Origin: Paraphysomonas bandaiensis
Lineage: Eukaryota > Protista > Chrysophyceae
Direction: 5' to 3'
NCBI GenBank assembly: GCA_965644295.1
Contig: CBFFRP010000297.1
Coordinates: forward strand, 1,007,164 to 1,071,163
DNA: 64,000 nucleotides
Shown: piece after piece, positions 39,001 to 58,627 of the stretch
How the letters are laid out: each line of letters opens with the position of its first letter
Position numbering within the stretch: the stretch's first letter is position 1
Program-made: the position numbers and the translations under genes
Notes under the pieces: generated by a model
Seen by the model: only the letters and a program-made list of their open reading frames with translations
Database searches by the model: none
Told to the model about the DNA's origin: nothing

Positions 39001-39478
39001 ACACACAAGCAGGGGGAAGGGAAACGGACGCTCTGTGCCGCTTAGGCATCCCTCCTGAGCCGGGAGGCTCTTCGTATAGTTATAAAACATTCGTTTTATA
39101 ACTCTTCCTTTTCACTCTAAGTATATAATTAATACTATACTTTAAATACTATACTTTAAATACTAATATTAATAATCTATACTTTAAACTGTTTTATAAT
39201 ACTATATACTTTAAATAATAATATTTCTAATTTATCCACTTTATACAATGAAAAGTAACACACCTGACAACATGGATAAAATGGATAATATTTTAAAGGA
39301 TAATAAAAAAGTTATAAAAATAGTTTTGAAATTGAAAAATCCACCCAATCTATCCAGCATGAATAAGAAGAGAAGGAAGACAACTTCTAGATCTTCAAAA
39401 GACTAAAGAGTGTGTCGAATGTGAAAAAGTGATAACGATTATAAAGCACACTCACACGCAAAAAACAATATACAAAAT
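39001..39478 (+). repeat. Left terminal inverted repeat (478 bp)
   Basis: Starts ACACACAAGC; reverse complement of 58150-58627 with no mismatch seen by eye. Confidence 0.96.
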
Positions 39479-39490
39479 GGAACAGAGAGT

Positions 39491-39919
39491 TTATATGTCT
39501 ACTTTTACATTCTCTCTATAGACTGTTATAACATTGCTTCTTTCATTGAGAACTTGTTTCTTTAGTTTCTTTGGTTTCTTGTCAGTTTCTTTCTTGATTG
39601 CTTCTTTTACTTTCGTTTTATCATTAAGACAAGGAACAGTGTTTATATAGTGCTTTAACTTTTCAATTGCTTCATCTTTTGATTTAAACTCTTCAATAAT
39701 TACCATGTTACAACGCTTAACACCTTTTAAACTGAATAATTTGAATACTGGATGTGCAAAATCTCCGTTTTTGTCATAACGATGCGTCATATACCTCTTT
39801 TTTAGGTAGAAATAATAAAATTTATAAGATTTTTTTGTTGATACTCCAAAATAGCAGTTTTTTGAGTTTCTATGACCTTGATATTGAATTCTATAGATAA
39901 CATACATATATATATACAT
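39491..39919 (-). CDS. GIY-YIG-like endonuclease (likely start 39907)
   Basis: YVIYRI...CYFGVST...R...H...E...YINTVPCLN pattern. Confidence 0.6.
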   Translation of the reverse strand: MYIYMYVIYRIQYQGHRNSKNCYFGVSTKKSYKFYYFYLKKRYMTHRYDKNGDFAHPVFKLFSLKGVKRCNMVIIEEFKSKDEAIEKLKHYINTVPCLNDKTKVKEAIKKETDKKPKKLKKQVLNERSNVITVYRENVKVDI

Positions 39920-39973
39920 ATGTTAGATAAAAATATTACTCTGTTGTTGAGTCAATCTGATATTAACATGAAA

Positions 39974-40429
39974 TTAATGAATATAAGTTTCACTTAATTT
40001 ATTATTTAGTTTTGCAAATTCAATTCTTTGTTCTTCAACACTTTTAATTTGTGATGGTATACATGTAAATACATCAATAATGTCTAAGAAATACAATCCA
40101 TTTGAATGAAACCATTCCATATTAGCTTTATAAACAGAATGATGACAACGAAATTTATTATACTTTGAATCTTTTGAAACATAATATTTTCCATTGCTTG
40201 CATTATAATTACTTAAATCATCAATTTCAAAAGATTTTTCTTTATACATTGTCATTGAATCAGATAGTGCACAATATACATATTTGTCATATAAACTTTC
40301 ATTATTTAAATAGTCTTCAAGAGGTAATATGTATAAGTAAGAGTTAGAATCAAACATAACATGAGGTGATGTTTTTAAAATTTCTTCATCTTCATTGGAA
40401 TGAATAATTAATTTGATGCATTTAATCAT
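39974..40429 (-). CDS. Viral hypothetical protein (151 aa)
   Basis: ORF preceded by the element's TTATATAAG-ATG motif. Confidence 0.65.
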   Translation of the reverse strand: MIKCIKLIIHSNEDEEILKTSPHVMFDSNSYLYILPLEDYLNNESLYDKYVYCALSDSMTMYKEKSFEIDDLSNYNASNGKYYVSKDSKYNKFRCHHSVYKANMEWFHSNGLYFLDIIDVFTCIPSQIKSVEEQRIEFAKLNNKLSETYIH

Positions 40430-40481
40430 CTTATATAATAATAACTTATATTTTATTTTTAAAAAACTTATTTATAAAATA

Positions 40482-41282
40482 TTACTCTGTTGTTGAGTCG
40501 AGACTCCATGTATCTCCCGTTAATCTGAAATTGATAGTATTGAACATACTATAACCTGCTGATGCGATAACAATCCTTATATATGAATATCTCTTTGTCG
40601 TTGTCACTGATTCAGTAAATAAAGTTGAATCTTGAGTTCCTGGAAATGCGACATCATCTATATAATTCCATGTTGAGCCATCATCAGAGCCCAATATATA
40701 ACAAGCTTTCATTGTTCTCTCTTGTGGTGTGCTTCTCTCTTGAGTTGATATAGATGTTAAACGAATCTTATAAGGTAATTGAACTTGAACCCATTCACCG
40801 TCGATTGTTTGATTAGTGTCGTAGGTTGTTGAAAAGTAATAGTTTGTTCCATTGCTACCAATATAATTACCTGTTGTTCCGTCATAAGCTTCACCAGAAG
40901 GCATGGTATGTAAAACGCCGTCTCTGTAATTGTCTATACCATTCGGACCACTGTTATATCTGTTATTACCCCAGAATGTATCATCACTGTCATCAAATAG
41001 TAAGTTACATGAATTTAAAGGATCGGCTGTTCTATATCTACCATATGAAGAACAAATCAAATTATAATCTCCATTAGCGTAAGCAGTTGAACCACTTCCA
41101 CCAGAATAAGACTTTGTAATGTGAGTGTCAAATACATCTTGACCGTTAAAAGCAGTTGGAAGACCTGTAAACGATGTAGGGAAAGTAACATTTGTTTGAT
41201 ATTGTGTATTTGTGACACCTCCTTCTGTAACTTTGTATTTGTTGATGTGATTAGCAATGTTGATAATAGAAGATAATGACAT
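40482..41282 (-). CDS. Discoidin/F5-8 type C (galactose-binding-like) domain protein
   Basis: LFDDSDDTFW, GEWVQVQLP..IRLTSI, ILGSDDGSTW, YSYIRIVI. Confidence 0.75.
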   Translation of the reverse strand: MSLSSIINIANHINKYKVTEGGVTNTQYQTNVTFPTSFTGLPTAFNGQDVFDTHITKSYSGGSGSTAYANGDYNLICSSYGRYRTADPLNSCNLLFDDSDDTFWGNNRYNSGPNGIDNYRDGVLHTMPSGEAYDGTTGNYIGSNGTNYYFSTTYDTNQTIDGEWVQVQLPYKIRLTSISTQERSTPQERTMKACYILGSDDGSTWNYIDDVAFPGTQDSTLFTESVTTTKRYSYIRIVIASAGYSMFNTINFRLTGDTWSLDSTTE

Positions 41283-41332
41283 TGTATATATATATATATG
41301 TTAGAAATAATTATATAATGTATTATTATATA

Positions 41333-42385: not shown

Positions 42386-42431
42386 AAGAATCAATATATT
42401 TTTCTAAACAATGTTATATATACAGTATAAG

Positions 42432-43127
42432 ATGGTTGATATAGTAAATTTTTATGAATTAGATGAAGTGAAAGCCTTTCAAACAGAAGCTATCAATCCT
42501 AACTATGGAAAACATGGAATCAAAGTTCCTTTCAGAATGTTAATCGTTGGAGCATCTGGAGCAGGTAAGTCGAATATCGTTTTGAATATGATTCGTGTTA
42601 TGAATAATACTTTTCACAAGATTATATTATACACAAGGAACAAGAAGGAGCCATTATACGAATACTTAGAAAGTAAGTTAGAAGACAATGATGACTTATT
42701 TGAAGTTCACGAAGGTTTAGAGCATTTAAGAAAAGTGAATATTGACAAAGAGTATTTCGGACAAACATTAATAATATTTGATGACTTAGTCAATGAGAAG
42801 AATCAAGATATAATAGGTGAAATGTTCTTAAGAGGTCGTAAAATTGGTGTATCATTGATATATTTGACTCAGAAATACGCACAAGTTCCAACACTAGTTA
42901 GAGAGCAATTAAACTATTTGATAATGAAGAAGATATCAGGCAAAAGAGATATAACATATTTGATGAGAAATCACGCTTTAAGTGGAGATATTAAACAACT
43001 TTTAAATATGTATAAGTATTGTGTAAACAAAGACATAACGAACTTTTTATTAATTGATTTAGAAGCACCAAGTGAGAGAGCATTCAGAAAGAACTTTAAT
43101 GAAATCTTGAATATAGAAGCATTTTAA
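42432..43127 (+). CDS. A32/FtsK-HerA family genome-packaging ATPase
   Basis: PFRMLIVGASGAGKS (Walker A), LIIFDD (Walker B), RGRK arginine finger, LTQ, VP..VREQ. Confidence 0.93.
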   Translation: MVDIVNFYELDEVKAFQTEAINPNYGKHGIKVPFRMLIVGASGAGKSNIVLNMIRVMNNTFHKIILYTRNKKEPLYEYLESKLEDNDDLFEVHEGLEHLRKVNIDKEYFGQTLIIFDDLVNEKNQDIIGEMFLRGRKIGVSLIYLTQKYAQVPTLVREQLNYLIMKKISGKRDITYLMRNHALSGDIKQLLNMYKYCVNKDITNFLLIDLEAPSERAFRKNFNEILNIEAF

Positions 43128-43161
43128 TAAAATATAATGTGTTTGTATTATATATAGAAAC

Positions 43162-44562
43162 ATGTTATCAAGTTATGAAATAAGAAGATTAGGTCCAAAG
43201 GAAAGAGAAAGATATTTCAGACAAAAGGAACTAAACAACTTAAAGATATTATCAGACATCAGCAAGAACATATCAGAAGAGCAACAACACATAGAAGAAG
43301 GCATTATACCAGAAGTGAGAGATAAAAGAACACTAGCAGAGAAAGAAGAAGATAATATATTACAATTACAGACAGCACAAAAGAACGCTTTAAAGTTGTT
43401 TAAAAATGACGGTAATGAAGCACAAGACTTTTTAAATAAATTAAAGAACAGTAGATATAACGATTTTGTTGACTTTAACAAGTATTTTTTAGGCATGTTT
43501 TCTTCTTTATCTAATAAGGTTGGTAAACTGCGAGCACAAGAAATGTATGATTTTGTTTATAGATATCTTGAAAATCAAAAGAACACATCAGGAATACGAA
43601 ATCTTCTATCATCAGAACAAGAAGTTGATGCAATAATACGACATTTAACTAATATAGCAGGTATATCAAGAGAAACTAGAAGTGATTTAAATGATAGATT
43701 AGAAGCATTACAACAAACTTTAGAATCATTGATTCAGAAATATGGAGAAAGCAAAGTGAAACAAGCTTATGAAATGTCAGATTTACCTGTCTTTGATGAA
43801 GAAGTGGATGAAGACACAATAGTTCCAGAAATACAAAAGATAGATAAAAAGTCATTAGAAAGTTTCTCAAGACAATTTCAAAGTTATCCAGTTATTGACG
43901 ATTACGAAGATTCAATATCATCAATAACGAATCAAGATGAAGATTTCAGTATTGAAAATGATGATTATGACTTTAGCTTTGACGATGAAAGAGAAGATGA
44001 TGATGATGATGAAGAGAAAGAAGAGAAAGAGATAAAAGAAGTAAAAGAAGTATATGATGAAAAGACACAACGAGCCATAAATAAAGTAAACTCAATGACA
44101 TTAGAAGAAATGAAAGCAATGTCAGGTAATGTAATAAGATTGATAAGAATATTGAATCAAGGAGGAGATGATTACAGAGATAGTTCAACACGAGTTAATA
44201 AAGATGATTTAAACGCTTACAATGAAGTTGCACCACTCTTTACACCAAGAGGAGGAAAAGCAACTGGAATACAAAAGAAGAGTTTATACAAATTTGTCAA
44301 AGACTCAGGAATCAAAACGATAGATAGAGTATTAAGAGAAAGAATAGCAGAACAAGAAGGAGATGTCGCAGAAGCAAAACAACCGAGAGAACCGAGAAAA
44401 TTAATTACACGAACTATACACGATATAAGAAGAGAAGAAGAAGAGAAGAAAAGAAAAGACGATGAAGATGAAGTAGAAGAAGAACCACAAGAAGGTGTTT
44501 TAAAAGAAGGTAACGGATTGATGATTAGAAAGATAGGAAGTATGAAAGTTAGATTCGGTTAA
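43162..44562 (+). CDS. Viral hypothetical protein, acidic/charged (466 aa)
   Basis: Long ORF with the upstream TATATA motif, within the morphogenesis block. Confidence 0.75.
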   Translation: MLSSYEIRRLGPKERERYFRQKELNNLKILSDISKNISEEQQHIEEGIIPEVRDKRTLAEKEEDNILQLQTAQKNALKLFKNDGNEAQDFLNKLKNSRYNDFVDFNKYFLGMFSSLSNKVGKLRAQEMYDFVYRYLENQKNTSGIRNLLSSEQEVDAIIRHLTNIAGISRETRSDLNDRLEALQQTLESLIQKYGESKVKQAYEMSDLPVFDEEVDEDTIVPEIQKIDKKSLESFSRQFQSYPVIDDYEDSISSITNQDEDFSIENDDYDFSFDDEREDDDDDEEKEEKEIKEVKEVYDEKTQRAINKVNSMTLEEMKAMSGNVIRLIRILNQGGDDYRDSSTRVNKDDLNAYNEVAPLFTPRGGKATGIQKKSLYKFVKDSGIKTIDRVLRERIAEQEGDVAEAKQPREPRKLITRTIHDIRREEEEKKRKDDEDEVEEEPQEGVLKEGNGLMIRKIGSMKVRFG

Positions 44563-44611
44563 TATTCAATAGTATAAAATATAATATAATATAATAGTAT
44601 ATTATAGAATA

Positions 44612-45070: not shown

Positions 45071-45107
45071 CTATTTGTAAAATTATTATATAAGTAAATA
45101 TTATATA

Positions 45108-45995
45108 ATGTCAGACACAAATTATAACTACAACACAATTATATTAAACAAAAACAATATAGTTCCAGGTTCAAAGAATTCAGTGTTCAAATATACTTTC
45201 AATCAATCATTAAGACTAAACAATTGTTCACTAGCTATTCAAAGTATCAATATGTATTACAGTTGGTTTAACATATCAGACTATTTCAGAAATAACAAGT
45301 TTTCATATGTATGGTTTGACAATGCAGGAGAATTGAACACAACTATAGATATAACAATTCCAGACGGCTATTATACAGTTGAATTATTGAATAAGTTTTT
45401 ACAATCTGAATTAGAGAAAAGAGGTCATTACTTGGTTCAAGAAAGCACGGGAGATTTTGCTTATCACATAGAATTCATTTCAAATGTAAGTTATTATTCA
45501 GTTCAATTGAATGTGTATGCAATGATGACAGAAGCTCAAGCAGGGACAGATTTCGTTAAAGGTTCAGAGACTTGGTCTTATCCTTCAACAGCCACAACAC
45601 CTCAACTAGTTGTTTCAAATTCTTCTTCATTTGGAGACTTAATAGGATATTCTAATGGAACATATCCATCAACAGCGTCAAGCACAAATACAACTTTTCT
45701 GTCAGATAAGACGCCGAATATGACGCCTGTTAGCTCTATAAATGTCGTTTGTTCAATGACAACTCAAAACGGCTTTAGTAATCCTGATGGACTGTTATAT
45801 TCATTTACAAGTGGTAGTGTTGAATTTGGAGGTATGATAGACAGAGAACCAAAAACGGAGTCTTTTGTTAAGGTGAGAGATGGTTTATATTCAAGCTTTA
45901 CAATAGAACTATATGACCAAGACATGAGAAGATTAGATATAAGAGACGCTGAAACGGTTATAATGTTAATTATTAAGAGTCCTGATGAAGATTAA
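45108..45995 (+). CDS. Minor capsid protein (penton, single jelly-roll)
   Basis: F...L.L...SLA..SI.MY.SWFNI, ITIPDGYYTVELLN, FGDLIGY, FTIELYDQD.R.LD pattern; size ~295 aa; lies upstream of the MCP. Confidence 0.82.
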   Translation: MSDTNYNYNTIILNKNNIVPGSKNSVFKYTFNQSLRLNNCSLAIQSINMYYSWFNISDYFRNNKFSYVWFDNAGELNTTIDITIPDGYYTVELLNKFLQSELEKRGHYLVQESTGDFAYHIEFISNVSYYSVQLNVYAMMTEAQAGTDFVKGSETWSYPSTATTPQLVVSNSSSFGDLIGYSNGTYPSTASSTNTTFLSDKTPNMTPVSSINVVCSMTTQNGFSNPDGLLYSFTSGSVEFGGMIDREPKTESFVKVRDGLYSSFTIELYDQDMRRLDIRDAETVIMLIIKSPDED

Positions 45996-46036
45996 AACGA
46001 TATAGTATATTTTTTTATATAATACTATTATATAAG

Positions 46037-46351: not shown

Positions 46352-46399
46352 AATAATTTATTATAAAATATTTTATAATCTAAGTGTATATTATACAAT

Positions 46400-48100
46400 A
46401 TGGACAAGTTAATAGTTGAACAATCTTTTGAAAAAGCAGAAGAGAATGTAAGTGACTTTGTGGAGTGGGATTATTCTAAATTGAGTGATTCACAAACTTC
46501 AGGTAATTATTCAAGCAATCAAACAATATTTGAAACTACTACACTCAGTAACAATGGTAAAATAAGTGATTACACGGATGGATTTATGTCAATGCCAATG
46601 GTTGATGTTGTGACAGGTAAAAATGGTGGGAATGACATTGACTTTACAGCAGCGCACATAAAGGAGAGTGATTTGTTATTATGCAGGAAGAATTCAAGTT
46701 TAAATATGATAGATTCAGTATCTATTCAATATCAAAATCAAGCAGGAATTCAAGAGACAAGAAATATTAATCAATACTTAATCTTTAAACAACATTCAGA
46801 AATGTCATTAGATGATGAATATGTAAACGGACCAACAATAGGATACGCTAAAGACACATCGGATTCTTGGAGTTATGACGAAGCAAATGGTTTAATGAAT
46901 AATAACAACGCTTTAAATCATTTAAATGGTATTGATTACATCAATAAATGCAATAAAGGAATGTATGAAAGACAACAAGTTTTTAGTAAGGTTGTTGATA
47001 CTGCCAATGCATCTAAGAGAGATTCAGTGTTGGGTGATAATGATAAAATTAACAACATGAATCGTAGTCATGTTGTGAATGTATCAGTGAATGGTTCAAA
47101 GTATAAAGCTTACTATTATACTTTGATTATTCGTCTTAAAGATCTTTCAAGTATATTTGAAAAATGCCCTCCTATGAAAGGTGGTCTTTTCAAAATAACA
47201 GTAAATTTTAATCAGTGTATATTTAAAGTAACTAAAACAGATAATGACACACTATCATTTTCTCCAGCAGACTTTAACGGAAGAGGAACAAACCCCTTGA
47301 TGGTTTCAAGTTCTCAATATAAAACTTTGATAGGTGCAGCCAACAACGAATCAACGGCAGGTAATGTAATTTGTGGAGGATACACTATACCAGATGGAAC
47401 AGAACTTACAATTAGTTGTAACATAGCAAAACCTCAATTTTACCCACATAATACACTTAATGTCACACCTTGTAAGGAGCAGAACTGTTTTCTTCACATT
47501 CCTTCTTATGTAATGAAACCTGCACTTCAGAAAAGATATTTAGAGAGTCCACAAAAACAAGTTATATATAACGATGTTGTTTTATTTCAACTTTTCAATA
47601 AGACAGGTCAAATTAATGAACTCATCACAAATGGTTTATCATATGCTAAGAGAATGATTATTTGTCCTTTCATTAGTTCATCAGGCAATGGAACGAATCA
47701 AATTCACCCGTTTCAATCACCTTTTACAACTGAACCCGCAACCTGTAGTCCTTATACCATTCAAAACCTTCAAGTTAAAGTATCATCAACAAATCTATAT
47801 CCCAATCAAATCAATTATTCATATGATATGTTTATGAGAGAGCTTAACGGCAAATATGGTGTAAACTCTAACTTAACGACTGGTTTATGTAGTTCAAGAA
47901 TCAATTTAAAAGACTTCATTAATACATACGGTTATATCGTAGTTGATTTAAAACGCAAACACACTGACGACGAAAGCGTTCCTTTATCTATTCAACTTGA
48001 ATGCAATATAACAAGTCCTAAGCCTCTTGATTTTAATATCTTCATTGAACAGGAGAAATCATTCGGACTTGATGTAGCAACAGGAAGAAGAGTAGATTAA
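46400..48100 (+). CDS. Major capsid protein (predicted double jelly-roll, 566 aa)
   Basis: Largest beta-rich ORF of the morphogenesis block, flanked by penton, ATPase and protease; C-terminal IQNLQVKV...YGYIVVDLKR...IQLE pattern typical of Polinton/PLV capsids. Confidence 0.82.
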   Translation: MDKLIVEQSFEKAEENVSDFVEWDYSKLSDSQTSGNYSSNQTIFETTTLSNNGKISDYTDGFMSMPMVDVVTGKNGGNDIDFTAAHIKESDLLLCRKNSSLNMIDSVSIQYQNQAGIQETRNINQYLIFKQHSEMSLDDEYVNGPTIGYAKDTSDSWSYDEANGLMNNNNALNHLNGIDYINKCNKGMYERQQVFSKVVDTANASKRDSVLGDNDKINNMNRSHVVNVSVNGSKYKAYYYTLIIRLKDLSSIFEKCPPMKGGLFKITVNFNQCIFKVTKTDNDTLSFSPADFNGRGTNPLMVSSSQYKTLIGAANNESTAGNVICGGYTIPDGTELTISCNIAKPQFYPHNTLNVTPCKEQNCFLHIPSYVMKPALQKRYLESPQKQVIYNDVVLFQLFNKTGQINELITNGLSYAKRMIICPFISSSGNGTNQIHPFQSPFTTEPATCSPYTIQNLQVKVSSTNLYPNQINYSYDMFMRELNGKYGVNSNLTTGLCSSRINLKDFINTYGYIVVDLKRKHTDDESVPLSIQLECNITSPKPLDFNIFIEQEKSFGLDVATGRRVD

Positions 48101-48962: not shown

Positions 48963-48979
48963 TATTGATATAATATATA

Positions 48980-49489: not shown

Positions 49490-49532
49490 AGATTTATGTA
49501 AATTTTTAATATCATGTTATTATATAATATAG

Positions 49533-50120
49533 ATGAAAAAACTTTCAACTCCCTCGCAACCACCAAGAGAAACAATGCCTGACACTTATAAATCAATTGT
49601 TGAAGTTAATTCAAATCCTTTTGATTCATACAAGGCATCACCTGACATTCAAAGTCAAGAACCAGTAAGACAAGAAACAGTAAGACAAGGAATAAAGAGA
49701 CAAGAATCCGTTAAAGACTTACCACCGAAGACACTTTATAATCATAATCTCAAACGGCTTAAATCATATAGAAACTTAAGAAAGAAGTATAAACTAGATA
49801 ATCAAAAAGCTATCTTCTTAGAGAACTTGAAAGAAACTTTAAAACCTCTTGACCCAAGAAGCAATAAGTATGACAGTGAGTTATTAGTTGCTGTTTTAGA
49901 CATTGCTGAATACTTCTTTATCTATGGAGATAGAGACCAAAGAAACGCTATGAAAATGGAAGCTGTTGTTGAACTAATGAAACCATACTTTAACAATGAT
50001 GAAACATACTTATTACACAGTATAAACAATGTAATGTATAGAGTTAAAAAGAGTAATGTATTTAGAAGATTAGCAACAAGACTAAGAAATTTTTTTTCAA
50101 TGATGATGAAAGCTTCTTAA
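49533..50120 (+). CDS. Viral hypothetical protein (195 aa; -1 frame extends to 50206)
   Basis: ORF with upstream TATATA motif; T8 run at 50090-50097. Confidence 0.7.
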   Translation: MKKLSTPSQPPRETMPDTYKSIVEVNSNPFDSYKASPDIQSQEPVRQETVRQGIKRQESVKDLPPKTLYNHNLKRLKSYRNLRKKYKLDNQKAIFLENLKETLKPLDPRSNKYDSELLVAVLDIAEYFFIYGDRDQRNAMKMEAVVELMKPYFNNDETYLLHSINNVMYRVKKSNVFRRLATRLRNFFSMMMKAS

Positions 50121-50239
50121 GGGGTCTTCTGAAATCGTTGATTGTTGAGATTCTAGTTAAAGTTATCATTCAAAGAATCTTTCCAATTCTATTAATAGCA
50201 TTGTAAAGTTATAAAACATTTTCTTAATCTATTATATAC

Positions 50240-50561
50240 ATGAGTGATTTCGTAATCTGTTTAAAAAACGAATTGTATGCAATACCAAAGACTAAGAAAC
50301 CACAAGTTCAAACTGAAATATCCAACATAGTCAAACAAATTGAAGGATACAAAGCCTTAATCAAAGACTTAGAAATACAAAAAGAAAAAAACAAGTTGAA
50401 CTTCTTAATGAAAGACAACAGATATATTATAAGAATCCAATCAATAGAAATTTACCAAGTGAACAACTTGAAAAAACTAAAGCTTATGAGAAGAGACAAA
50501 AGTTATTAAAAGAATACGATGATTCACACGGAACTTATATAAAACCTGAACAAGGCTATTA
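50240..50561 (+). CDS. Small coiled-coil viral protein (frame break at the A7 run ~50385-50391)
   Basis: ORF 50240-50509; the -1 frame continues KQVELLNERQQIYYKNP...PEQGY to TAG at ~50561. Confidence 0.55.
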
Positions 50562-50634
50562 GTTTGATTGTTACAATGTTACATATACATATGTATATAT
50601 AATACTAACTAACTAATCACAGCAACACTAAAAC

Positions 50635-50820
50635 TTATAAATTATACATCTTCTGATACTTCTCCATAGTAATAATCATCATCTTTATATCTTCAATCTC
50701 TTTATAACATTTCTTATGATACTCTCTAGACTTCCAATCGTTATTTATACTTCTCATAGCTTTGTTGCAGTGTTTACACTTTGTTTTAATCTCTTTAGGT
50801 TTTCCACTATCTTTAGGCAT
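50635..50820 (-). CDS. Small zinc-finger protein
   Basis: CKHC...HKKC; preceded by both conserved upstream motifs. Confidence 0.6.
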   Translation of the reverse strand: MPKDSGKPKEIKTKCKHCNKAMRSINNDWKSREYHKKCYKEIEDIKMMIITMEKYQKMYNL

Positions 50821-50887
50821 GATATATAATATGTATATATAATATTTTTTTAAATTGTTTTATATTAATTTATTAATTTATATATTA

Positions 50888-52336
50888 TTAATAATATGAA
50901 CCTACATTAGATATAACTTTCGTCGGTGCTGTCCCTGAATTGGTATATATTATTGTTATCGTTTGTAGTATTGCTCCTGATGTTGTTACATTTGAAATGT
51001 CTACGTTTGCGAGTCCGCCAGAGACATTTAAAGTTTGTGACACTGTATTAACTTTTAAAGTGTTTATGTGTGCTTTATAACTTGATGTATCTATTATAAC
51101 TGACACTGTGAAAGAAGTGTTTGTTAAGTTACTTGAATTGACATTCGTTATATCAAGTTGAAAGTTTGTGTCTGCTGTCAATCCATTGAAATATACAATT
51201 GCTCCATTGTTATAATCATATGTCAAAACATCTGATGCAAACGAATATGTTGTGCTGAGTGACTCGCTTATTTGTTTAGTTGTTATATTGCCTGTTATTG
51301 TTCCGCCTGTTAAATTCAATTTTGTATTTTCAAGTGTTGTAATATTACCGTCTATTGTATTTAATAAGTTATCAATTGTATCATTAAATGTATAGTCATA
51401 AACTAAAGAAGAATTCAATTTATTATTAACATTAATAATGTCATTTTTAGTTAATATATCATTAGTGTTTGTTGTTATTTGAGTTTGTAAGTTTGTTATA
51501 TCATTGTCATTGTTTGTTATTTGAGTTTGTAATGATGTTATATCATTATCATTGTTTGTTATTTGAGTTTGTAATGATGTTATATCATTAGTGTTTGTTG
51601 TTATTTGAGTTTGTAAATTTGCTATGTCTGTATCATTGGAATTTATTTGATTCTGCAAATTTGTATCTTCTGTTTGTAGTGTTGTCACGTCATTTTGTAA
51701 GTTTGTTATGTCTGTATCGTTATTAGTAATCTGAGTTTGTAAATTTGCTATGTCTGTGTCGTTATTAGTAATCTGAGTTTGTAAATTTGCTATGTCTGTG
51801 TCGTTATTAGTAATCTGAGTTTGTAAATTTGCTATGTCTGTGTCGTTATTAGTAATCTGAGTTTGTAAATTTGCTATGTCTGTATCATTGGAATTTATTT
51901 GATTCTGTAATATTGTATCTTGAGCTTGTAAATCTGCGACATCAGACTGCAAAGCTGGAATATTAATTAAATCTATGTCTTGAAGAGCATCAAGACCGTT
52001 AAAACTTGCTGTCAATGTGTTTAATTGTGATTGTATAGTTTCATTGGTATTTATTCCGTCTAATGTTTGAATTTCATCTTCAGTAAGGTTTAATAATCTT
52101 GTGTTCATATCCAATAACATCGTGTTCTTTGAATCTGTGAAAGCGACTGTTTGAGGTTCATTATTAATGGTTATGTTCTTACCAGAGACGATTTCAACAT
52201 TCTCCGTAAATCTCGCATTGTCTAATCTTGCATATTCTGCCATGTTTAATATAACTCTTGCTGTTTCTCTCTGTTTAAAGTTCTCTGCGTTGAATATGGT
52301 ATTATTACTTGTTTTCGGCTTCGTATATATTGACAT
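50888..52336 (-). CDS. Fibre/spike-like virion protein B with long coiled-coil stalk
   Basis: N-terminal MSIYTKPKTSNNTIFNAENF, 14-aa repeats NNDTDIANLQTQIT, LNLTGGTITGNI neck, beta-rich head. Confidence 0.75.
   Translation of the reverse strand: MSIYTKPKTSNNTIFNAENFKQRETARVILNMAEYARLDNARFTENVEIVSGKNITINNEPQTVAFTDSKNTMLLDMNTRLLNLTEDEIQTLDGINTNETIQSQLNTLTASFNGLDALQDIDLINIPALQSDVADLQAQDTILQNQINSNDTDIANLQTQITNNDTDIANLQTQITNNDTDIANLQTQITNNDTDIANLQTQITNNDTDITNLQNDVTTLQTEDTNLQNQINSNDTDIANLQTQITTNTNDITSLQTQITNNDNDITSLQTQITNNDNDITNLQTQITTNTNDILTKNDIINVNNKLNSSLVYDYTFNDTIDNLLNTIDGNITTLENTKLNLTGGTITGNITTKQISESLSTTYSFASDVLTYDYNNGAIVYFNGLTADTNFQLDITNVNSSNLTNTSFTVSVIIDTSSYKAHINTLKVNTVSQTLNVSGGLANVDISNVTTSGAILQTITIIYTNSGTAPTKVISNVGSYY
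51460..51900 (-). repeat. 42-bp coding tandem repeats in fibre B
   Basis: GTTATTAGTAATCTGAGTTTGTAAATTTGCTATGTCTGTGTC repeated, plus diverged copies. Confidence 0.9.
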
Positions 52337-52383
52337 CTATATATAATATAACAACATTATTATATTCTATAATTAAATTAGGT

Positions 52384-52974
52384 TTACAATTTTGTTTCGT
52401 AGTTTATCTCAATTCTGGTATGAGATGACATTGAAAATTTCTCATAGGCATCGAATGAGGGTATTCTAAGAGTTTTGACGTTAGCATCAAAGTCAAGATT
52501 TTTTACGAAATAAGGAATTTTAACTATTTTTACATCTCCATAGATATACATATCAAGTTTTTCAATTGAATTTGGTAAATTTGTTATATTTTTATTAGCT
52601 TCATCATTTGTGTCATCGACTTTCAAATCTGTAATTGAATTTGGCAAATTGTTCAGAAACATATGATAAGGTAATACACGATTTATCCCAATATTTTTAA
52701 GTTTGTTGCTTAAGTTATTAACGTAATTATCGCATGGGAATATTGATATTTCAAGTGAATGTATGTTTAGTTTATATGATAATTGATAAATTTGTTTTCT
52801 TATAGTTATATCATCTACATAAATGCCAATTTTTAATGTCTCGCAATTTTCTATTTCATTTATCAATTCTATTTTGTTTAGCAATCGTCCAAATGTATTC
52901 GCCACTGGCAAATACATCTCATCAGCTATAACTCGTAATTCTGTTTCAGACAACTTTTTCAATTCAAGGCTCAT
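52384..52974 (-). CDS. FNIP/IP22-like leucine-rich repeat protein
   Basis: LNNLPNSITDL, ITNLPNSIEKL, IVKIPYFVKNL repeats. Confidence 0.65.
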   Translation of the reverse strand: MSLELKKLSETELRVIADEMYLPVANTFGRLLNKIELINEIENCETLKIGIYVDDITIRKQIYQLSYKLNIHSLEISIFPCDNYVNNLSNKLKNIGINRVLPYHMFLNNLPNSITDLKVDDTNDEANKNITNLPNSIEKLDMYIYGDVKIVKIPYFVKNLDFDANVKTLRIPSFDAYEKFSMSSHTRIEINYETKL

Positions 52975-53035
52975 AATACAATATAATATGTTTATATAAT
53001 ATTTCTTTAAAACATTTTAAAACATTTTATAATAA

Positions 53036-53254
53036 TTATTCATTTATTTGATTCTTCCTTTCTTCAATCATCTTCTTCTCTTCTTGTGTTCGTTTACATA
53101 ATGCTGTCTTATAGTGTAACTTGATTCTATTCTTGCAAACTTGTCTGTCACATAACTCACATTTGACCTTTTCACAATTGTAAGCTATAAGTTTATCTCT
53201 GTTCTTCTTGTAGTATTCTTTCTGATATGCAATGTTCTTTTCTGACTTATTCAT
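53036..53254 (-). CDS. Small zinc-finger protein
   Basis: YQKEYYKKNRDKL followed by CELC...HYKTALC. Confidence 0.65.
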   Translation of the reverse strand: MNKSEKNIAYQKEYYKKNRDKLIAYNCEKVKCELCDRQVCKNRIKLHYKTALCKRTQEEKKMIEERKNQINE

Positions 53255-53351
53255 ATTATTAATAATACTATATATTTTTATTTTTTTAAATTACTTTATA
53301 TAAAATTAACGCAAATGTATCTTTCATATTTTATATATACTTATTATATAT

Positions 53352-54368
53352 ATGAACAATAAATCATTCAATGACATAATAAAAAAACTTGATATTGATG
53401 AAACATTTACTAAAGAAGGAAAGAAGCAAAAGAAATTTAATAATATTAGAAAGAATACTGTTCAAAAGGCTAATTACAACATGATGGCAGATTTGTTAGA
53501 ACTTCCTACAACTTCAAAAGGATATAGATACTGTTTTGTTATATGTGACTTATTCACAAGACGATTTGACATTGAACCAATCAAGAATAAAGATTCTCAA
53601 ACAGTTTTAAATGCTATGAAAGAATGCTTTAAACGACCATATATTGATAAACCTTATGCTTCTATTAGAACAGATGATGGAAATGAATTCAAAGGAGTCT
53701 TCTTCAAATACTTATATGACAACTCAATCTTACATAAAGTTGCTCTTCCTAATAGACATAAACAATTGGCGAGTGTTGAAGCATTAAATAAGCAATTAGA
53801 CAGACTATTCAACGGTTATATGAATAAAAAAGAGAAAGAAACAAAGAAAGTATATCGTGAATGGACTGATATAATACCAATAGTCAGAAAAGATTTAAAC
53901 GAATTCAGAGAAAACTTAACAGTTAATGAACCTGGATTCATTGACCATTCTATTAAACAAAAATATAAAGTAGGTGATGTTGTATATGAAAAACTCAACA
54001 CTCCTGAAAATGCTTTAGGACATAAACAAAATACAAAGAACTTTCGTGTTGGTGATTATAGATATTCACAAATACCAAAGAAGATTATAAAAGTTGCTTA
54101 TTTCACTGATAAACCTTATCACAGATATATATTAGAAGGATTACCTAATGTCTCTTACTCTGAATATGAACTCATGAAAGCTAAAGATGAAAAGGAAACG
54201 AAATATGAAGTTAAAAAGATCATCGGAAAGAGAACAAAGAATAAGAAAACTGAATACTTGATATGGTGGAAGAACTATAGAAAGAATGAAAGCACGTGGG
54301 AACCTGAAAAAAACTTAATTGAAGATGGATTAAAAAACTTGATTGATGAATACAATAAAAAGGATTAA
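53352..54368 (+). CDS. Retroviral-type (rve) integrase with C-terminal chromodomain
   Basis: MADL (D), ICDLFTR, RTDDGNEF (D), VEALNK (E); chromodomain YEVKKIIGKR...EYLIWWKNY...STWEPEKNL. Confidence 0.94.
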   Translation: MNNKSFNDIIKKLDIDETFTKEGKKQKKFNNIRKNTVQKANYNMMADLLELPTTSKGYRYCFVICDLFTRRFDIEPIKNKDSQTVLNAMKECFKRPYIDKPYASIRTDDGNEFKGVFFKYLYDNSILHKVALPNRHKQLASVEALNKQLDRLFNGYMNKKEKETKKVYREWTDIIPIVRKDLNEFRENLTVNEPGFIDHSIKQKYKVGDVVYEKLNTPENALGHKQNTKNFRVGDYRYSQIPKKIIKVAYFTDKPYHRYILEGLPNVSYSEYELMKAKDEKETKYEVKKIIGKRTKNKKTEYLIWWKNYRKNESTWEPEKNLIEDGLKNLIDEYNKKD

Positions 54369-55819
54369 CAATCGTGTGTTTCATCCTTACCCATTAACTT
54401 ATTCGTTCTATGTGAATACAAAAAACCGCACTTTTTACACTTATGAAAATAGGTATTTGTGTTTTTCCATAGTATATTGCCTGTTGTTTTTGATTCTTTC
54501 AATGGTTTGTATTTGTCTTTAAATTCGTGTTTTCTGTTTAATACTATACCATCTGTATGAATTCTTATTATCTTATGTAATATACCTTCTCTATCTATCA
54601 TCTTCGCTACAAAACAACGACAATGTGACATAAGAAATGACTTCATTCTTGCTATGTTGTATTTATAAGGTTGGTCTTTGTCGATCAATGTAAAGTCAAT
54701 CTTTATATTATCATCACTGTCTACACTCATCTTCTCTTTCAATACCTTATATTTTGTATTATTCTTATCTGTTATGTCTGAGACATCTTCATCATCAAGT
54801 TTCATAAACTCCTCTTGATTATAATACAGTTTCTTATGTTCACACAAGTAGCCCCAAATACTAGACATTAAATGCTTGATTAACATATTCTTATTCTTAT
54901 CTTTCATACTCTTTAATTTGTCATACCAACTCTCAAATATAACTTTACTTTCTATTAAGTCATCTTCTTCATATATCATGGTATTATAATCTTTAGCTTG
55001 TTCATTTATCTTAAACTCTAATTCAAAGTTGTCTATTTGTGAATATACATATAACAAGTCTATATGAGTATACCAATTATCACTTGAAAATGAAAACTTC
55101 TTATAAAACTGTGAAGTACTTGTTTTATTCTCACATTCTTTTATTGTTATCTTGACATTGTATACTCCATATTTCAACTTACCTTTTGATAACTTCTTCA
55201 TAAACTTATCTTGAGACATCATCTTGTATTCTGGTTGTGAGGTAGCAATCTTAAAATCACTTTTAGACAGAATATAAGGATAGAAAGCTCCATAGTCGTA
55301 TCCATAACACTTTATAACATCATTTTTATATTCCTCATCTAAACAACAAAGACCAGCATTATGACACTTTTCCAAAACATAAGATTCTTTGAAGTTTATG
55401 TTTTCTAATCTAACTTTCCTATTGTTCATATTTACACTGTTCTTTTTCATATTTGAGAATCTTTCAAATGTCATTATTAAAGCACTCTTATGATTATAAT
55501 ACTTCTTATAAAATATACCATCTTTTAACAATACATCGCAACTTTCTTTAAAGTCTTTCATATACTGTCGTATTCCTTCTTTTGAGCCTTCATAACCGTC
55601 AAACAGTTCAAAGTAATTATAACTTCGTTTATTGTTCATTCCGTCATCATATCTCTCTTGTTCTGTTTGACAATTTAGATCATCTTTATCGTGTGACATG
55701 TAATAGACTTTGCCGCTCTCTCTATAGAAGAATCTTAAATAACGGCTTTCGCCTGTTTCTTTGTTATATACTCTCTCTTCACCATTCTTACTTATGAACT
55801 TTCTCTTATTAATACTCAT
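54365..55819 (-). CDS. Short, divergent family B DNA polymerase (pPolB-related)
   Basis: Motif A YGYDYGAFYP, motif B KHLMSSIWG, ARMKSFLMSHCR, motif C RIHTDGI; no clear exonuclease domain. Confidence 0.8.
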   Translation of the reverse strand: MSINKRKFISKNGEERVYNKETGESRYLRFFYRESGKVYYMSHDKDDLNCQTEQERYDDGMNNKRSYNYFELFDGYEGSKEGIRQYMKDFKESCDVLLKDGIFYKKYYNHKSALIMTFERFSNMKKNSVNMNNRKVRLENINFKESYVLEKCHNAGLCCLDEEYKNDVIKCYGYDYGAFYPYILSKSDFKIATSQPEYKMMSQDKFMKKLSKGKLKYGVYNVKITIKECENKTSTSQFYKKFSFSSDNWYTHIDLLYVYSQIDNFELEFKINEQAKDYNTMIYEEDDLIESKVIFESWYDKLKSMKDKNKNMLIKHLMSSIWGYLCEHKKLYYNQEEFMKLDDEDVSDITDKNNTKYKVLKEKMSVDSDDNIKIDFTLIDKDQPYKYNIARMKSFLMSHCRCFVAKMIDREGILHKIIRIHTDGIVLNRKHEFKDKYKPLKESKTTGNILWKNTNTYFHKCKKCGFLYSHRTNKLMGKDETHDC

Positions 55820-55874
55820 TATTATATATTATATATATATAATAATTCTTTATATTATTTTAAATTGTTTTAAT

Positions 55875-56234
55875 TTATTTTATATTTTTTTTAATATTAT
55901 TATTATTATTATTTTTTACATAAAAATCAACATATTCATACTCATAAAACTTTTTGTCATCTTTAACTTTGTTTTTCATATATTCTATGTCATCCCAGTC
56001 TCTTATATCATTATCTGCGAAACTTTTTATTGTTAGATATCTGTTGTCTATTGTTTTTACTAATATACTTATTCTGTTTCTATCTATATCTTTTTTATCT
56101 ATTAAAGCTCTTGTCAAAGTTCTTATGTCATTAATTGTTACCTTCTTACCTTCTTTAGGTAACAATCTTTTGGCACCTATTCTGTATTTTCCTTTTGTTA
56201 TTTCGCCAACATCTTTAACTTCAAAATTCTGCAT
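55875..56234 (-). CDS. Viral hypothetical protein (119 aa from ATG 56234)
   Basis: ATG preceded by TATATA and the AAAACAATTTAAA motif; lies between helicase and PolB. Confidence 0.65.
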   Translation of the reverse strand: MQNFEVKDVGEITKGKYRIGAKRLLPKEGKKVTINDIRTLTRALIDKKDIDRNRISILVKTIDNRYLTIKSFADNDIRDWDDIEYMKNKVKDDKKFYEYEYVDFYVKNNNNNNIKKNIK

Positions 56235-56289
56235 GTATATATATATAATAAATATATATATTAAAATTTTAAATTGTTTTATATTATTT

Positions 56290-58065
56290 TTAAAAAAAAT
56301 CAGGGAAATTTTCAATATCTATGTCAGTCAAATCTGTCTGTTCTGGTAACATTACGAGATTGACATCTTTGTTAACTTTAGTCTCTTTCGTTGTCTTCTC
56401 TTTTGTCTTGTTGACATCTTTGTTAACTTTGGTCTCTTTTGTCGTGATTAGTTTGTTCTTTGCTTTGATTACAGTGTTTACAGTGTTTACACCAAAGTCA
56501 AATGACTTGTTCAAGTCTTCTTCGTTATATTCATGTTCGTCAAGTTCGTCAAGTTCATCAAGTTCATCTAACTCTTTAATAAACTTATCTTCTTTTGTTG
56601 TCTTCTTGTTATCACTCTTCTCAAGTTCTTTTATTCTTTCTTTCAATAGTTTGATTTCATCTTTCAATCTTTTGACTTCTTCGGCTTCTTCATCTTGAAT
56701 ACAGTTAGTTTCATGAGTGTTATCACCATCAAATTCATCATATTTACATATCCACTTCTCTTTTTCTGCTATAGAATGTAACTCTTTCACAGAATAATTA
56801 TATCTGAATCCATTAGACTTTATAGTTGTTATTTTGACTTCTTCTAGTTTTTGATAAAATGTATTTGCCTTTAATTTTCTTACTCCACTACTTGATGCCC
56901 ATTCTGCGTAGTCATCATATAAACTCTTTCTTGGAACTCTCTTAATTGGTAATCTCTTTAAAACAAACATCTCTTTAATGAATCTATAAGCACTGTCTAA
57001 GTTACTTGATATAGCTACTCTCTTATTCTCTGTCTCTGGAAAGTCTCTTTGAGGATAGTATTTTGAACATTCTTCGTCAGTGATTTCAGTTAGTAAGTAT
57101 GAGAAGAACGCTTCGCCACACTTCATATTAAAACATGTGTCTCTTAAGTTGTTAAAATAATCAAAATCTTGCTTTCTTGCTAAAGATATATCTAATTCTG
57201 CTGCTCTACGTCCTGACGAATCTTTCATATGATAGTTGGTAGTTGCTACATAGTTGTTTATATTAGGTGCATCAAATTGCTTTTCGTATTTGTCAGCATA
57301 CAATGTAGTTTTTTCAGTCACATAAGTTTTAATTTTAGATGAGAATCTTTTATAATCATTGTCTGTTAAGTCTTCAATATCTTCTACTATTACGAATACC
57401 TTACCAAGTAGTAGCTTGTTATTTGCTGTGAGGAAAGGTGATAAATCTGTAACTCTTACTGATACACTGTGTCCAAACACAAACTCATAAAAGAAATCTG
57501 GTTCTGTTGATTTTCCAACTCCTTGAGCACTTGTTCTTCTAACTATTATCAATTCAGTCTTTTTACCTCTTGCTATTAAAGCATACCACAATAACAACGC
57601 CTTCAATGTCTTCTCATCATTGTTACATGAGACCTCTCTCATGAAATCAATAAACTTATAGACTGACTCTTTAGTTTTCTTATCATACTCTTTGAAGGAC
57701 TTGTAATTACTATGTAAGAATGAGCCAGACTCATTTATATAGTATTTAGAATTGTTCTTGTATATTCTCGGTTTACCTATTTTACATGCTATCTTGAAAA
57801 TTTTGTTGTTCTTGTTCATTTGTTTCGTTATCTCTTTTTCTTTTTCAAGTTTTACAAGAACTTCGTTTTTGAAATCTTTTTTAGTCTTCATAACAAATTT
57901 GTCTTCTTCAACATCATAAAAGTAGTATAGACCGCCTTGTATTTCGTAGTAATACTTAAACACATACTTTATTACATCTAGATTGTCTTTAAGTTCTCCA
58001 TGTTTCTCTAAGTGTTGCATCTTTGAAATACTGAAGTCTTCCTTTGGTAAAGTTAGAATTTCCAT
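56290..58065 (-). CDS. Superfamily 3 (D5/NrS-1-like) helicase
   Basis: Walker A QGVGKST, Walker B VIVED, motif C ATTN, arginine finger GRR; winged-helix-like LYDDYAEW..; no primase motif evident. Confidence 0.88.
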   Translation of the reverse strand: MEILTLPKEDFSISKMQHLEKHGELKDNLDVIKYVFKYYYEIQGGLYYFYDVEEDKFVMKTKKDFKNEVLVKLEKEKEITKQMNKNNKIFKIACKIGKPRIYKNNSKYYINESGSFLHSNYKSFKEYDKKTKESVYKFIDFMREVSCNNDEKTLKALLLWYALIARGKKTELIIVRRTSAQGVGKSTEPDFFYEFVFGHSVSVRVTDLSPFLTANNKLLLGKVFVIVEDIEDLTDNDYKRFSSKIKTYVTEKTTLYADKYEKQFDAPNINNYVATTNYHMKDSSGRRAAELDISLARKQDFDYFNNLRDTCFNMKCGEAFFSYLLTEITDEECSKYYPQRDFPETENKRVAISSNLDSAYRFIKEMFVLKRLPIKRVPRKSLYDDYAEWASSSGVRKLKANTFYQKLEEVKITTIKSNGFRYNYSVKELHSIAEKEKWICKYDEFDGDNTHETNCIQDEEAEEVKRLKDEIKLLKERIKELEKSDNKKTTKEDKFIKELDELDELDELDEHEYNEEDLNKSFDFGVNTVNTVIKAKNKLITTKETKVNKDVNKTKEKTTKETKVNKDVNLVMLPEQTDLTDIDIENFPDFF

Positions 58066-58149
58066 ATCTATATAATAGTATTATATTTTATTTTTTTAAA
58101 TTGTTTTATATTAATTTAAAATAATTGTTTTATATTATTTAAGAAAAAG

Positions 58150-58627
58150 ATTTTGTATATTGTTTTTTGCGTGTGAGTGTGCTTTATAATCGTTATCACT
58201 TTTTCACATTCGACACACTCTTTAGTCTTTTGAAGATCTAGAAGTTGTCTTCCTTCTCTTCTTATTCATGCTGGATAGATTGGGTGGATTTTTCAATTTC
58301 AAAACTATTTTTATAACTTTTTTATTATCCTTTAAAATATTATCCATTTTATCCATGTTGTCAGGTGTGTTACTTTTCATTGTATAAAGTGGATAAATTA
58401 GAAATATTATTATTTAAAGTATATAGTATTATAAAACAGTTTAAAGTATAGATTATTAATATTAGTATTTAAAGTATAGTATTTAAAGTATAGTATTAAT
58501 TATATACTTAGAGTGAAAAGGAAGAGTTATAAAACGAATGTTTTATAACTATACGAAGAGCCTCCCGGCTCAGGAGGGATGCCTAAGCGGCACAGAGCGT
58601 CCGTTTCCCTTCCCCCTGCTTGTGTGT
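58150..58627 (-). repeat. Right terminal inverted repeat (478 bp)
   Basis: Ends ...GCTTGTGTGT at 58627; mirror of 39001-39478. Confidence 0.96.

Follow-up and report, generated by a model that had tools for sequence, protein, structure and literature searches.

The 64,000-nucleotide stretch of Paraphysomonas bandaiensis DNA analyzed here (the window) carries, at positions 39001 to 58627, what we regard with considerable confidence as an integrated Gossevirus with a double jelly-roll (DJR) capsid, which likely entered by means of its own chromodomain integrase and which, if excised, would provide a linear genome that is replicated by protein priming and packaged in icosahedral particles. A preliminary description of this DNA had proposed a Polinton-like provirus with a mavirus-like module of integrase, family B DNA polymerase (PolB) and helicase; this reading held, as the major capsid protein (MCP) is of the DJR type and the top structural match of the PolB is the mavirus pPolB.

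Ends and coding content of the element

The element is bounded by two terminal inverted repeats (TIRs; 39001-39478 and 58150-58627) of 478 nt each, which are 100% complementary, and measures 19,627 bp with both TIRs included; the mismatch-free 478-bp TIRs and the size of 19.6 kb reported initially were both reproduced. No TIR similarity was found outward of 39001 and 58627, and a contig start in run X3 coincides with 39001. The GC content of the element is 29.1% as compared to 39.3% across positions 1-38900 of the window. A terminal hairpin at the element end was considered and rejected (z -1.0, not significant in the TIR), and an Rfam and tRNA search of the window gave no matches. Joints near 40443/39130-39148 are located in AT-rich repeats.

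Listing of open reading frames (ORFs) over positions 38000-59500 gave 33 ATG ORFs of at least 70 aa, 21 of which form a non-overlapping set between the TIRs that spans 92.6% of positions 39479-58149. With the addition of a 61-aa ORF (50635-50820, minus strand) the set comprises 22 ORFs, in keeping with the approximately 23 packed and nearly all undisrupted ORFs noted previously, and 21 of the 22 are open. The sole broken ORF (50240-50509, plus strand) is frameshifted relative to a 105-aa homolog in the related locus L002, with residues 48-104 matching another frame at 50380-50550 (E 3e-14); this frameshift could be genuine or could stem from the assembly. A 120-aa antisense ORF (55987-56349, plus strand) and a 52-aa ORF within the TIRs were put aside as likely spurious. 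Enrichment of the CroV late-promoter motif TCTA upstream of genes was also rejected (7/24 as compared to a shuffle mean of 4.1; p 0.09). The features are as follows:

39001..39478 (+), left TIR; starts with a short AC repeat, outer ~75 nt GC-rich
39491..39919 (-), 142-aa ORF; GIY-YIG-like N-terminus by eye alone, no match in Pfam and PHROG
39974..40429 (-), 151-aa ORF with no assigned role; from the ORF list, Pfam and PHROG searched
40482..41282 (-), 266-aa F5/8 type C (carbohydrate-binding) protein; PF00754 E 8e-11, homolog in L004
41276..42385 (+), predicted fiber-like protein 1, 369 aa; N-terminal segment in common with fiber 2 (E 5e-5)
42411..43127 (+), A32-like packaging ATPase, 238 aa; PF04665 E 2.4e-18, Walker motifs
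43162..44562 (+), 466-aa ORF in the morphogenesis block, conserved at its N-terminal end in L001, L002, L004 and L007
44612..45070 (+), 152-aa ORF in the morphogenesis block; kept in related loci
45108..45995 (+), predicted penton (minor capsid protein), 295 aa; also precedes the MCP in related loci, where it is conserved at 31-48% identity
46037..46351 (+), 104-aa ORF with no assigned role; from the ORF list
46400..48100 (+), MCP, 566 aa, double jelly-roll, GKS1/Gossevirus type; model and sequence comparison
48168..48962 (+), 264-aa basic conserved ORF; homologs downstream of the MCP in L001, L002 and L004
48980..49489 (+), adenain/Ulp1-like cysteine protease, 169 aa; PF00770 E 4e-4 (under cut-off), ASFV S273R E 0.009
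49533..50120 (+), 195-aa conserved ORF following the protease; kept in related loci
50240..50550 (+), frameshifted gene (ORF 50240-50509 and a second frame); 105-aa L002 homolog matching two frames
50635..50820 (-), 61-aa ORF with Cys/His; sequence inspection
50888..52336 (-), predicted fiber-like protein 2, 482 aa; contains a coiled-coil repeat of 42 nt (14 aa) in 10.5 copies
52384..52974 (-), 196-aa ORF with weak FNIP repeat; PF05725 E 0.0015 (under cut-off)
53036..53254 (-), 72-aa zinc-finger-like ORF adjoining the integrase; homologs in L002 and L015
53352..54368 (+), rve integrase with C-terminal chromodomain, 338 aa; PF00665 E 2.7e-8, PF00385 E 3e-13, DDE residues present
54365..55819 (-), short mavirus-type PolB, 484 aa; exonuclease remnant and polymerase domain
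55875..56234 (-), 119-aa conserved gene, candidate stand-alone terminal protein; immediately upstream of PolB
56290..58065 (-), predicted superfamily 3 (SF3) helicase, 591 aa; PF19263 E 9e-11, PHROG primase C-terminal part E 4e-6, Walker motifs
58150..58627 (-), right TIR; repeat comparison
58628..63896 (+), host Ty3/gypsy retrotransposon (gag-protease, RT, RNase H and integrase in several frames), split by the virus in gag

Capsid genes and affiliation with Gosseviruses

The structure model of the MCP (pLDDT 88) has a double jelly-roll fold, and its top PDB structural matches were the mavirus, faustovirus and Sputnik MCPs (8-10% identity), with the mavirus MCP first; the earlier MCP call was thus upheld by the predicted fold. 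Profile or structure likewise confirmed the A32 ATPase, the PolB and the rve integrase with its chromodomain, and the protease and SF3 helicase calls are backed by weak matches together with motifs. In the protease these are His54, Asp69, Gln96 and Cys103, and its position is conserved in related loci. Penton and both fibers are putative assignments from position, conservation and composition; a fiber 1 homolog immediately precedes the ATPase in L002 and L004, and fiber 2 homologs are present in L002, L004 and L007. The F5/8 type C protein is likely to function in receptor binding and the 264-aa basic ORF possibly encodes a core protein. The A32 ATPase would fill a capsid composed of MCP, penton and the two fibers, which the protease would mature, and transcription would likely rely on a co-infecting giant virus, by analogy with virophages and most cultured PLVs. 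PDB sequence searches (with the MCP, an MCP profile, PolB, a penton profile, fiber 1 and the helicase) yielded nothing useful, scans of viral_contigs, whether by individual proteins or by the MCP alignment, yielded no relative, and a phage collection searched with PolB and MCP yielded no match.

By eye, the window MCP is collinear with the sequence listed as "GKS1 Gossevirus MCP type" in Table S2 of PMC10120064 and also with the PC_0014 MCPs (PMC7805220 supplement). One sequence, P0182, is approximately three-quarters identical, by eye, to the published GKS1 representative across the first 130 residues; it was matched by our MCP profile (E 2.8e-140) and aligned with the window MCP itself at 26.5% identity (BLASTP; 563 columns, E 3e-50). 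These comparisons place the MCP in the GKS1/Gossevirus family, with the link to the published representative made by eye and through the one intermediate, P0182. In an MCP tree using 64 of 213 sequences the window MCP and P0182 are separated by a distance of 2.46, which indicates that the window MCP forms a distinct subclade, approx. 26% identical to this close relative of the published representative.

The proposal of an undescribed lineage did not stand, as the MCP is of the type of an already described group. Moreover, the order of the morphogenesis genes is common to L001, L002, L004, L007 and L011, which comes close to the shared gene order that the preliminary description had itself named as removing the novelty. 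The parts of the literature available to us (PMC7805220, PMC10120064 and bioRxiv 10.64898/2026.06.19.733378) describe Gosseviruses that resemble the window element in MCP family, in the combination of MCP, mCP, A32 ATPase and cysteine protease, in size, in TIRs and in protist endogeny. In the available part of PMC7805220, Gosseviruses are reported to be frequently inserted in chrysophytes and oomycetes, some carry pPolB and an rve integrase, and they represent the PLV group in which the cysteine protease is among the core genes. Approximately half of the members in the accounts available carry a phospholipase, whereas none was detected in the window element. As chrysophyte genomes contain 33 to 104 capsid-gene copies each, with retrotransposons alongside (PMC10120064, available part), the provirus as such is ordinary; L001, L002 and L004 do not appear under their contig names among the rows listed in the portion of the PMC10120064 supplements at hand.

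The short polymerase and the gene upstream of it

A structural search with the PolB model placed the mavirus pPolB first (E 3e-21, TMq 0.65), and the closest solved fold is the phi29 polymerase (model residues 25-470; Z 18.4, rmsd 5.0, 363 aligned). Only 174 residues lie ahead of motif A, modelled as an exonuclease remnant and linker, and the modelled protein has no room for terminal-protein (TP) or vOTU domains. The "minimal PolB" of the preliminary description represents a conserved short family rather than a truncation: all 40 homologs found are 303-481 aa in length, and all 37 that were aligned begin with Met and have 113-172 residues ahead of motif A. The PolB of L002, on the other hand, has 701 aa with motif A near residue ~445. 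The short architecture is absent from a 2024 survey of pPolBs, in which TP fusion is the rule in eukaryotes, except for adenoviruses and one coral polinton, and in which mavirus has the sole modelled pPolB reduced to an exonuclease remnant (bioRxiv 10.1101/2024.03.18.585575). The combination of short PolB and upstream small gene is likewise not described for Gosseviruses in the available parts of the three Gossevirus sources cited above.

A small (~110-aa) gene is located directly upstream of the short PolB in all four distinct loci (the window, L013, L014 and L015). One of these, L015, was located via its integrase, and its small gene was recovered (E 4e-7) by a profile from which it had been left out. 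Tyr85 of the 119-aa protein, near its C-terminal part, is invariant in the four proteins. Because the short PolB carries no fused TP and vOTU domains, the 119-aa gene is the likely source of the primer, and we propose that it is likely a split-off TP. Its product would probably prime via Tyr85, the terminal AC repeat would permit slide-back initiation, the short PolB would have lost proofreading and would act together with the separate SF3 helicase, in line with the proposal for mavirus, and the rve integrase would act on the TIR ends. No primase domain was detected in the 591-aa helicase.

A tentative alternative holds that the virus is the same and that its short PolB does not need a TP, initiating by itself or from primers made by the helicase or the host, so that the 119-aa gene would be an accessory, e.g., a helicase loader or DNA-binding protein. 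Consistent with this alternative, comparison of the 119-aa family with the N-terminus of the L002 PolB (pairwise, profile and shuffle) revealed no significant link to the fused TP region (best z 2.0; 47/1000 shuffles equally good), and in another PLV pPolB neither TP nor vOTU could be located (PMC12721341). Conversely, the small gene occupies the position of the fused TP in all four loci, with no counterpart detected next to the long L002 PolB, its product approximates the small alpha/beta domain of PRD1-type TPs in size and has the invariant Tyr, and the phi29 enzyme, the closest solved fold, is protein-primed. PRD1-type TPs consist of a small alpha/beta domain with a four-stranded sheet and two helices, in which the linking Ser/Tyr stands ahead of the last strand with Gly/Pro close by; the 119-aa protein has neither Gly nor Pro adjoining Tyr85, and these residues are not conserved at that place in its family. 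The protein had no usable match in Pfam, PHROG or Atlas, and none of 323 candidates was a longer, fused form of it, which is weak evidence.

In L013 the replication genes lie next to a capsid module whose genes gave no match to the GKS1 profile (best E 0.47), which suggests that the block of helicase, small gene, PolB and integrase acts as an exchangeable cassette. Low depth of a sister family over the PolB-helicase region was observed in run X8, but is not proof of module exchange as sequence less than 85% alike was not aligned. Putting the proposed split-off TP and the exchangeable block together, we see an even prospect that this is a mobile minimal cassette, in which a mavirus-type PolB shed TP, vOTU and proofreading and became an enzyme of ~400-480 aa primed by a separate TP of ~110 aa. 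This would represent an independent return to the split organization known from PRD1 and adenoviruses, with the cassette passing between Gosseviruses and other small DNA viruses whose capsids are unrelated.

The integrated copy and its comparison with known viruses

The flanking genes are those of a eukaryote, many of the datasets that contain the sequence are marine, and the host is likely a marine flagellate; no RNA dataset was among those listed, which has no bearing on expression. The right end of the element sits within the gag of the Ty3/gypsy retrotransposon. No target-site duplication (TSD) was present at the element ends, and the flanks have just 1 nt in common, whereas integrase-made insertions usually leave a TSD (1-9 bp in EMALEs; PMC8547959). 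In three of four runs uninterrupted gypsy copies continue past 58628 in the upstream direction, and the sequence there does not resemble the left flank in the window; no contig joining 39000 directly to 58628 was found. A rearrangement or deletion of the host site, either upon insertion or afterwards, is likely. As to the suggestion that the insertion is recent, identical TIRs and 21/22 open ORFs make it plausible, but the flanks provide no clean insertion site.

The irregular flanks and the frameshifted gene, together with an enclosing gypsy whose pol is split across several frames, would also fit a provirus that is real but dead, i.e., trapped by flank rearrangement or silenced, with its ORFs intact just from youth. 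We consider this possible, though doubtful, given the identical TIRs, the catalytic motifs in ATPase, protease, integrase, PolB and helicase, and near-identical pieces in X3, a marine metagenome of a separate study. That the assembler mis-joined a free or multi-copy viral genome to host DNA would account for the absent TSD and the mismatched flanks, and a related viral sequence is indeed present at very high depth with no contig linking 39000 to 58628. A mis-join is nevertheless improbable, as an X8 contig crosses the right junction with no mismatch (70 viral and 30 host letters, where the bridging rule asks for 31) and as the exact-match viral contigs have a depth akin to that of neighboring host contigs (in X8 ~8 as compared to 9.7 for the gypsy contig).

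The reading as a true virophage related to mavirus and EMALEs, to which the mavirus-like PolB, stand-alone helicase, chromo-integrase, weak FNIP repeat and first-ranked mavirus MCP in the PDB search would point, is largely refuted and very unlikely, since the MCP is no closer to virophages (8-10% identity) than to faustovirus and PBCV-1 and matches GKS1 in sequence, since mavirus and Sputnik chains gave no sequence match to the window MCP protein or profile, and since Gossevirus MCPs are without BLASTP homology to virophage MCPs in the available part of PMC7805220.

The integrated Gossevirus nevertheless shares with mavirus and EMALEs (PMC8547959) an exonuclease-deficient pPolB in which the first Asp of motif C is missing, a separate SF3 helicase and an rve-chromo integrase, and with the Cafeteria EMALEs an AT-rich genome within a GC-richer host and an association with retrotransposons; EMALE02 is itself a chimera of a mavirus-type replication end and PLV capsid genes (PMC8547959). 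It differs from mavirus in its non-virophage MCP and in PolB length (484 aa as compared to 617 aa with fused TP-vOTU in mavirus), from EMALEs in the absent TSD, and from both in that TCTA promoters are not enriched. Like Maverick/Polintons (Polintoviricetes groups 1 and 2), it has pPolB, rve integrase, protease, ATPase and DJR MCP inside TIRs; unlike these, it has a protist host and a GKS1 capsid and has neither a TP-vOTU-EXO-PALM polymerase nor a TSD of 5-6 bp. The GKS1 match makes an MCP of Maverick/Polinton group 1 or 2 unlikely.

The Gossevirus literature, in the parts available to us, contains no cultured Gossevirus, and the complete copy found here, in a genome whose sequencing runs are labelled by organism, could offer a handle on their lifestyle. 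If the split-off TP is real, the element would resemble adenoviruses, PRD1-like tectiviruses and the Stylophora polinton in having a TP apart from the polymerase; adenoviruses keep an inactive vOTU and the coral polinton an active one, whereas the window PolB has an exonuclease remnant and no vOTU (bioRxiv 10.1101/2024.03.18.585575). A two-gene minimal protein-primed replicase of this kind would, if true, represent an extra step in the evolutionary scheme of pPolBs and would be easy to test biochemically.

Affiliation and organization of the endogenous virus

The provirus at 39001-58627 is an almost intact endogenous Gossevirus (i.e., a Polinton-like virus of the GKS1 type, PC_0014). It adds a member to a group that is abundant and already described, while its replication cassette (helicase, small gene, PolB and integrase) looks like an undescribed minimal variant. 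The features of the element discussed here are as follows:

39001-39478 and 58150-58627, terminal inverted repeats (TIRs)
41276-42385, first predicted fibre-like protein
50240-50550, frameshifted gene
50888-52336, second predicted fibre-like protein
54365..55819, minus strand, short PolB
55875..56234, minus strand, small (119-aa) gene upstream of PolB

As proposed in the preliminary description, the TIRs match each other as reverse complements along all 478 nt without a mismatch, and complementarity ends at both outer limits. The element is 19,627 bp long, with a GC content of 29.1% as compared to 39.3% in the preceding window DNA (1-38900). Within the TIRs, 21 non-overlapping ORFs, chosen from 33 ATG ORFs of at least 70 aa across 38000-59500, cover 92.6% of the interior, and addition of a 61-aa ORF brings the total to 22. 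The initial picture of an intact provirus with about 23 packed and nearly all undisrupted ORFs stands; one gene carries a frameshift when compared with its homologue in L002, a related database contig. The 9-mer TATTATATA was found at most 40 nt upstream of 12 of the 24 candidate starts as compared to a shuffle mean of 0.4 (none of 2000 shuffles of single letters gave as many as 12, a control that is lenient where DNA is TA-rich); the plus strand of the element has 10 occurrences, and window 1-38900 has none. Because of this upstream enrichment and its absence from 1-38900, TATTATATA is likely a promoter motif.

Pfam and PDB sequence searches with the 566-aa major capsid protein (MCP) gave no match. 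A first search found 81 relatives, and a profile search found 2,390 representatives at E ≤ 0.001. The structure model built from a 70-sequence alignment (pLDDT 88, pTM 0.88) was closest, among PDB structures, to capsid proteins, namely those of mavirus (E 6e-13), faustovirus and Sputnik, at 8-10% identity, and a viral structure library gave the same picture. The protein is thus a double jelly-roll MCP, though of non-virophage type.

A motif search of the PMC10120064 supplement led to the entry "GKS1 Gossevirus MCP type" (residues 1-400 of 576 compared), in which the motifs follow, by eye, the same order as in the window MCP; the same holds, by eye, for the PC_0014 MCPs in the PMC7805220 supplement. 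P0182, an MCP close to the published GKS1 representative (about three-quarters identical over the first 130 residues of P0182, by eye), matched the MCP profile with E 2.8e-140 and shows 26.5% identity to the window MCP over 563 columns. In an unrooted FastTree phylogeny, into which 64 of 213 sequences were taken, the window MCP clustered with those of L001, L002 and L004 (support 1.0), distant from P0182, as a subclade of a wide family.

L002 and L004 contain the full series ATPase, 466 aa, 152 aa, predicted penton, MCP, 264 aa, protease and 195 aa in this gene order, parts of which are seen in L001, L003, L007, L010 and L011. The ATPase has a clear A32 match; the protease has weak matches, with catalytic motifs present. 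As the MCP is of GKS1/Gossevirus type, this order is common to related contigs and the group is described and abundant, the proposal of an undescribed lineage was abandoned. Gosseviruses with pPolB and rve are already noted in PMC7805220. The two predicted fibre-like proteins have in common a short N-terminal segment with a Phe-Asn motif, and the first likely starts at its Met20. This segment is reminiscent of the penton-binding tail of the adenovirus fibre.

The short polymerase and its upstream gene

The model of the 484-aa PolB (pLDDT 90) had mavirus pPolB (617 aa) as best viral structural match (E 3e-21, TMq 0.65) and phi29 polymerase as best solved match (Z 18.4, rmsd 5.0, 363 residues aligned within 25-470 of the model). 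Its first approx. 105 residues matched RNase H-like exonucleases weakly (Z about 3), and in the model this region fits an exonuclease remnant. Motif C reads HTDG; for pPolBs without this first Asp, retained activity is predicted in 10.1101/2024.03.18.585575.

All 40 PolB homologues found were 303-481 aa long, in a search that allowed up to 847, and all 37 aligned homologues start with Met, 113-172 residues ahead of motif A (174 in the window PolB). Conversely, the PolB of the Gossevirus relative L002 has 701 aa, and its motif A lies near residue 445; the short-PolB profile covers only its C-terminal half, and Cys/His motifs in its extension can be read as a putative vOTU. Given the homologue lengths and the Met starts close to motif A, the short PolB represents a conserved family with no room for a terminal protein (TP) or vOTU.

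Four distinct loci combine a short PolB with upstream DNA, i.e., the window, L013 (identical with contig L016), L014 (truncated) and L015. All four have, directly upstream of PolB and in the same orientation, a gene of approx. 110 aa and of one family, with the integrase convergent to PolB on its other side. Pairwise z-scores within the small-gene family were 5.6-16.8, and the member from L015, a contig found via its integrase, was matched (E 4e-7) by a profile from which it had been left out. Six columns are invariant, Tyr85 among them, and a helicase-like gene precedes the small gene in the window, L013 and L015 (the last two by eye). No test run found similarity between the small-gene family and the L002 PolB extension, which speaks against its being a TP. 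We consider the 119-aa gene a candidate split-off TP, a reading that we judge evenly balanced or slightly favoured. A literature search, with subscription papers and bioRxiv supplements outside its scope, gave no report of a mavirus-type PolB that is devoid of TP as well as vOTU and accompanied by a separate upstream gene; such short enzymes may sit unremarked in published genome sets.

Apparent exchange of the replication cassette

In L013 (197-5445 and 6194-14325, IMG/VR contig), the same cassette adjoins capsid-module genes without a match to the GKS1 profile, while in L015 (3235-9283) it occurs with a protease and an ATPase not matching that of the window. Because of these mismatches, the cassette appears to travel between capsid types. 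The L015 contig is filed in a giant-virus MAG but resembles a fragment of a virophage or PLV that was placed in the same bin as a giant virus. Replication-module exchange among capsid lineages is described as common, with pPolB linked to DDE integrases, in 10.64898/2026.10.13.758929, and PMC8547959 presents EMALE02 as a chimera that joins replication genes of mavirus type to PLV capsid genes.

L002 (14734-21707), a close capsid relative, carries another replication set, with the 701-aa PolB and its long N-terminal extension, a divergent integrase, a helicase-like gene unlike that of the window and, by eye, a lipase-like ORF.

Insertion site, sister sequences and host repeats

At its right end, the virus directly borders the gag frame of a Ty3/gypsy element, and an (ACAT)n microsatellite precedes the left flank. 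The two flanks have only one base in common, and thus no target site duplication is present. One contig from sequencing run X8 spans the right junction exactly (70 letters on one side, 30 on the other). In three of four runs, gypsy contigs extend upstream beyond 58628, where their 11-nt end differs from the left flank, and no contig in the runs examined joins 39000 to 58628; loss or rearrangement of host DNA at this position is thus likely. In the Ty3/gypsy element (58628-63896), pol is distributed over several frames, and the 3' LTR falls outside the window. In run X6, the depth of the gypsy contigs is about fourfold that of a diverged neighbour contig. The 87-base segment adjoining the virus on the left (38914-39000) starts with TG immediately after the microsatellite and may be the start of the gypsy 5' LTR.

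In runs X1, X6, X8 and X3, exact pieces of the element have a modest depth, and sister contigs of roughly 90% identity are much deeper (49 vs. 1,117 in X6, 8 vs. 112-198 in X8 and 9-15 vs. 40-50 in X3); in all four, the deeper sequence covers window 40200-52200. Although depth does not equal copy number, and X1 may be the run from which the window itself derives, this pattern suggests either a multi-copy sister family (many endogenous copies) or a free or replicating virus. The flanking genes are eukaryotic, and many sequence sets containing window sequence are marine; in PMC7805220, all 11 Gossevirus host links reported are to stramenopiles.

Elsewhere in the window, a Ty1/copia retrotransposon (7546-12725) has identical 307-bp LTRs (7546-7852 and 12419-12725) and gag/pol in two frames, with an inverted LTR-like copy (98% identical) at 34141-34401. 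Small dispersed inverted-repeat families in host DNA (4628-4756 and 16907-17029; 3706-3959 and 25985-26364; 34529-36100) are possibly miniature transposons, and 36432-37205 (minus strand) resembles, by eye, a transposase fragment.
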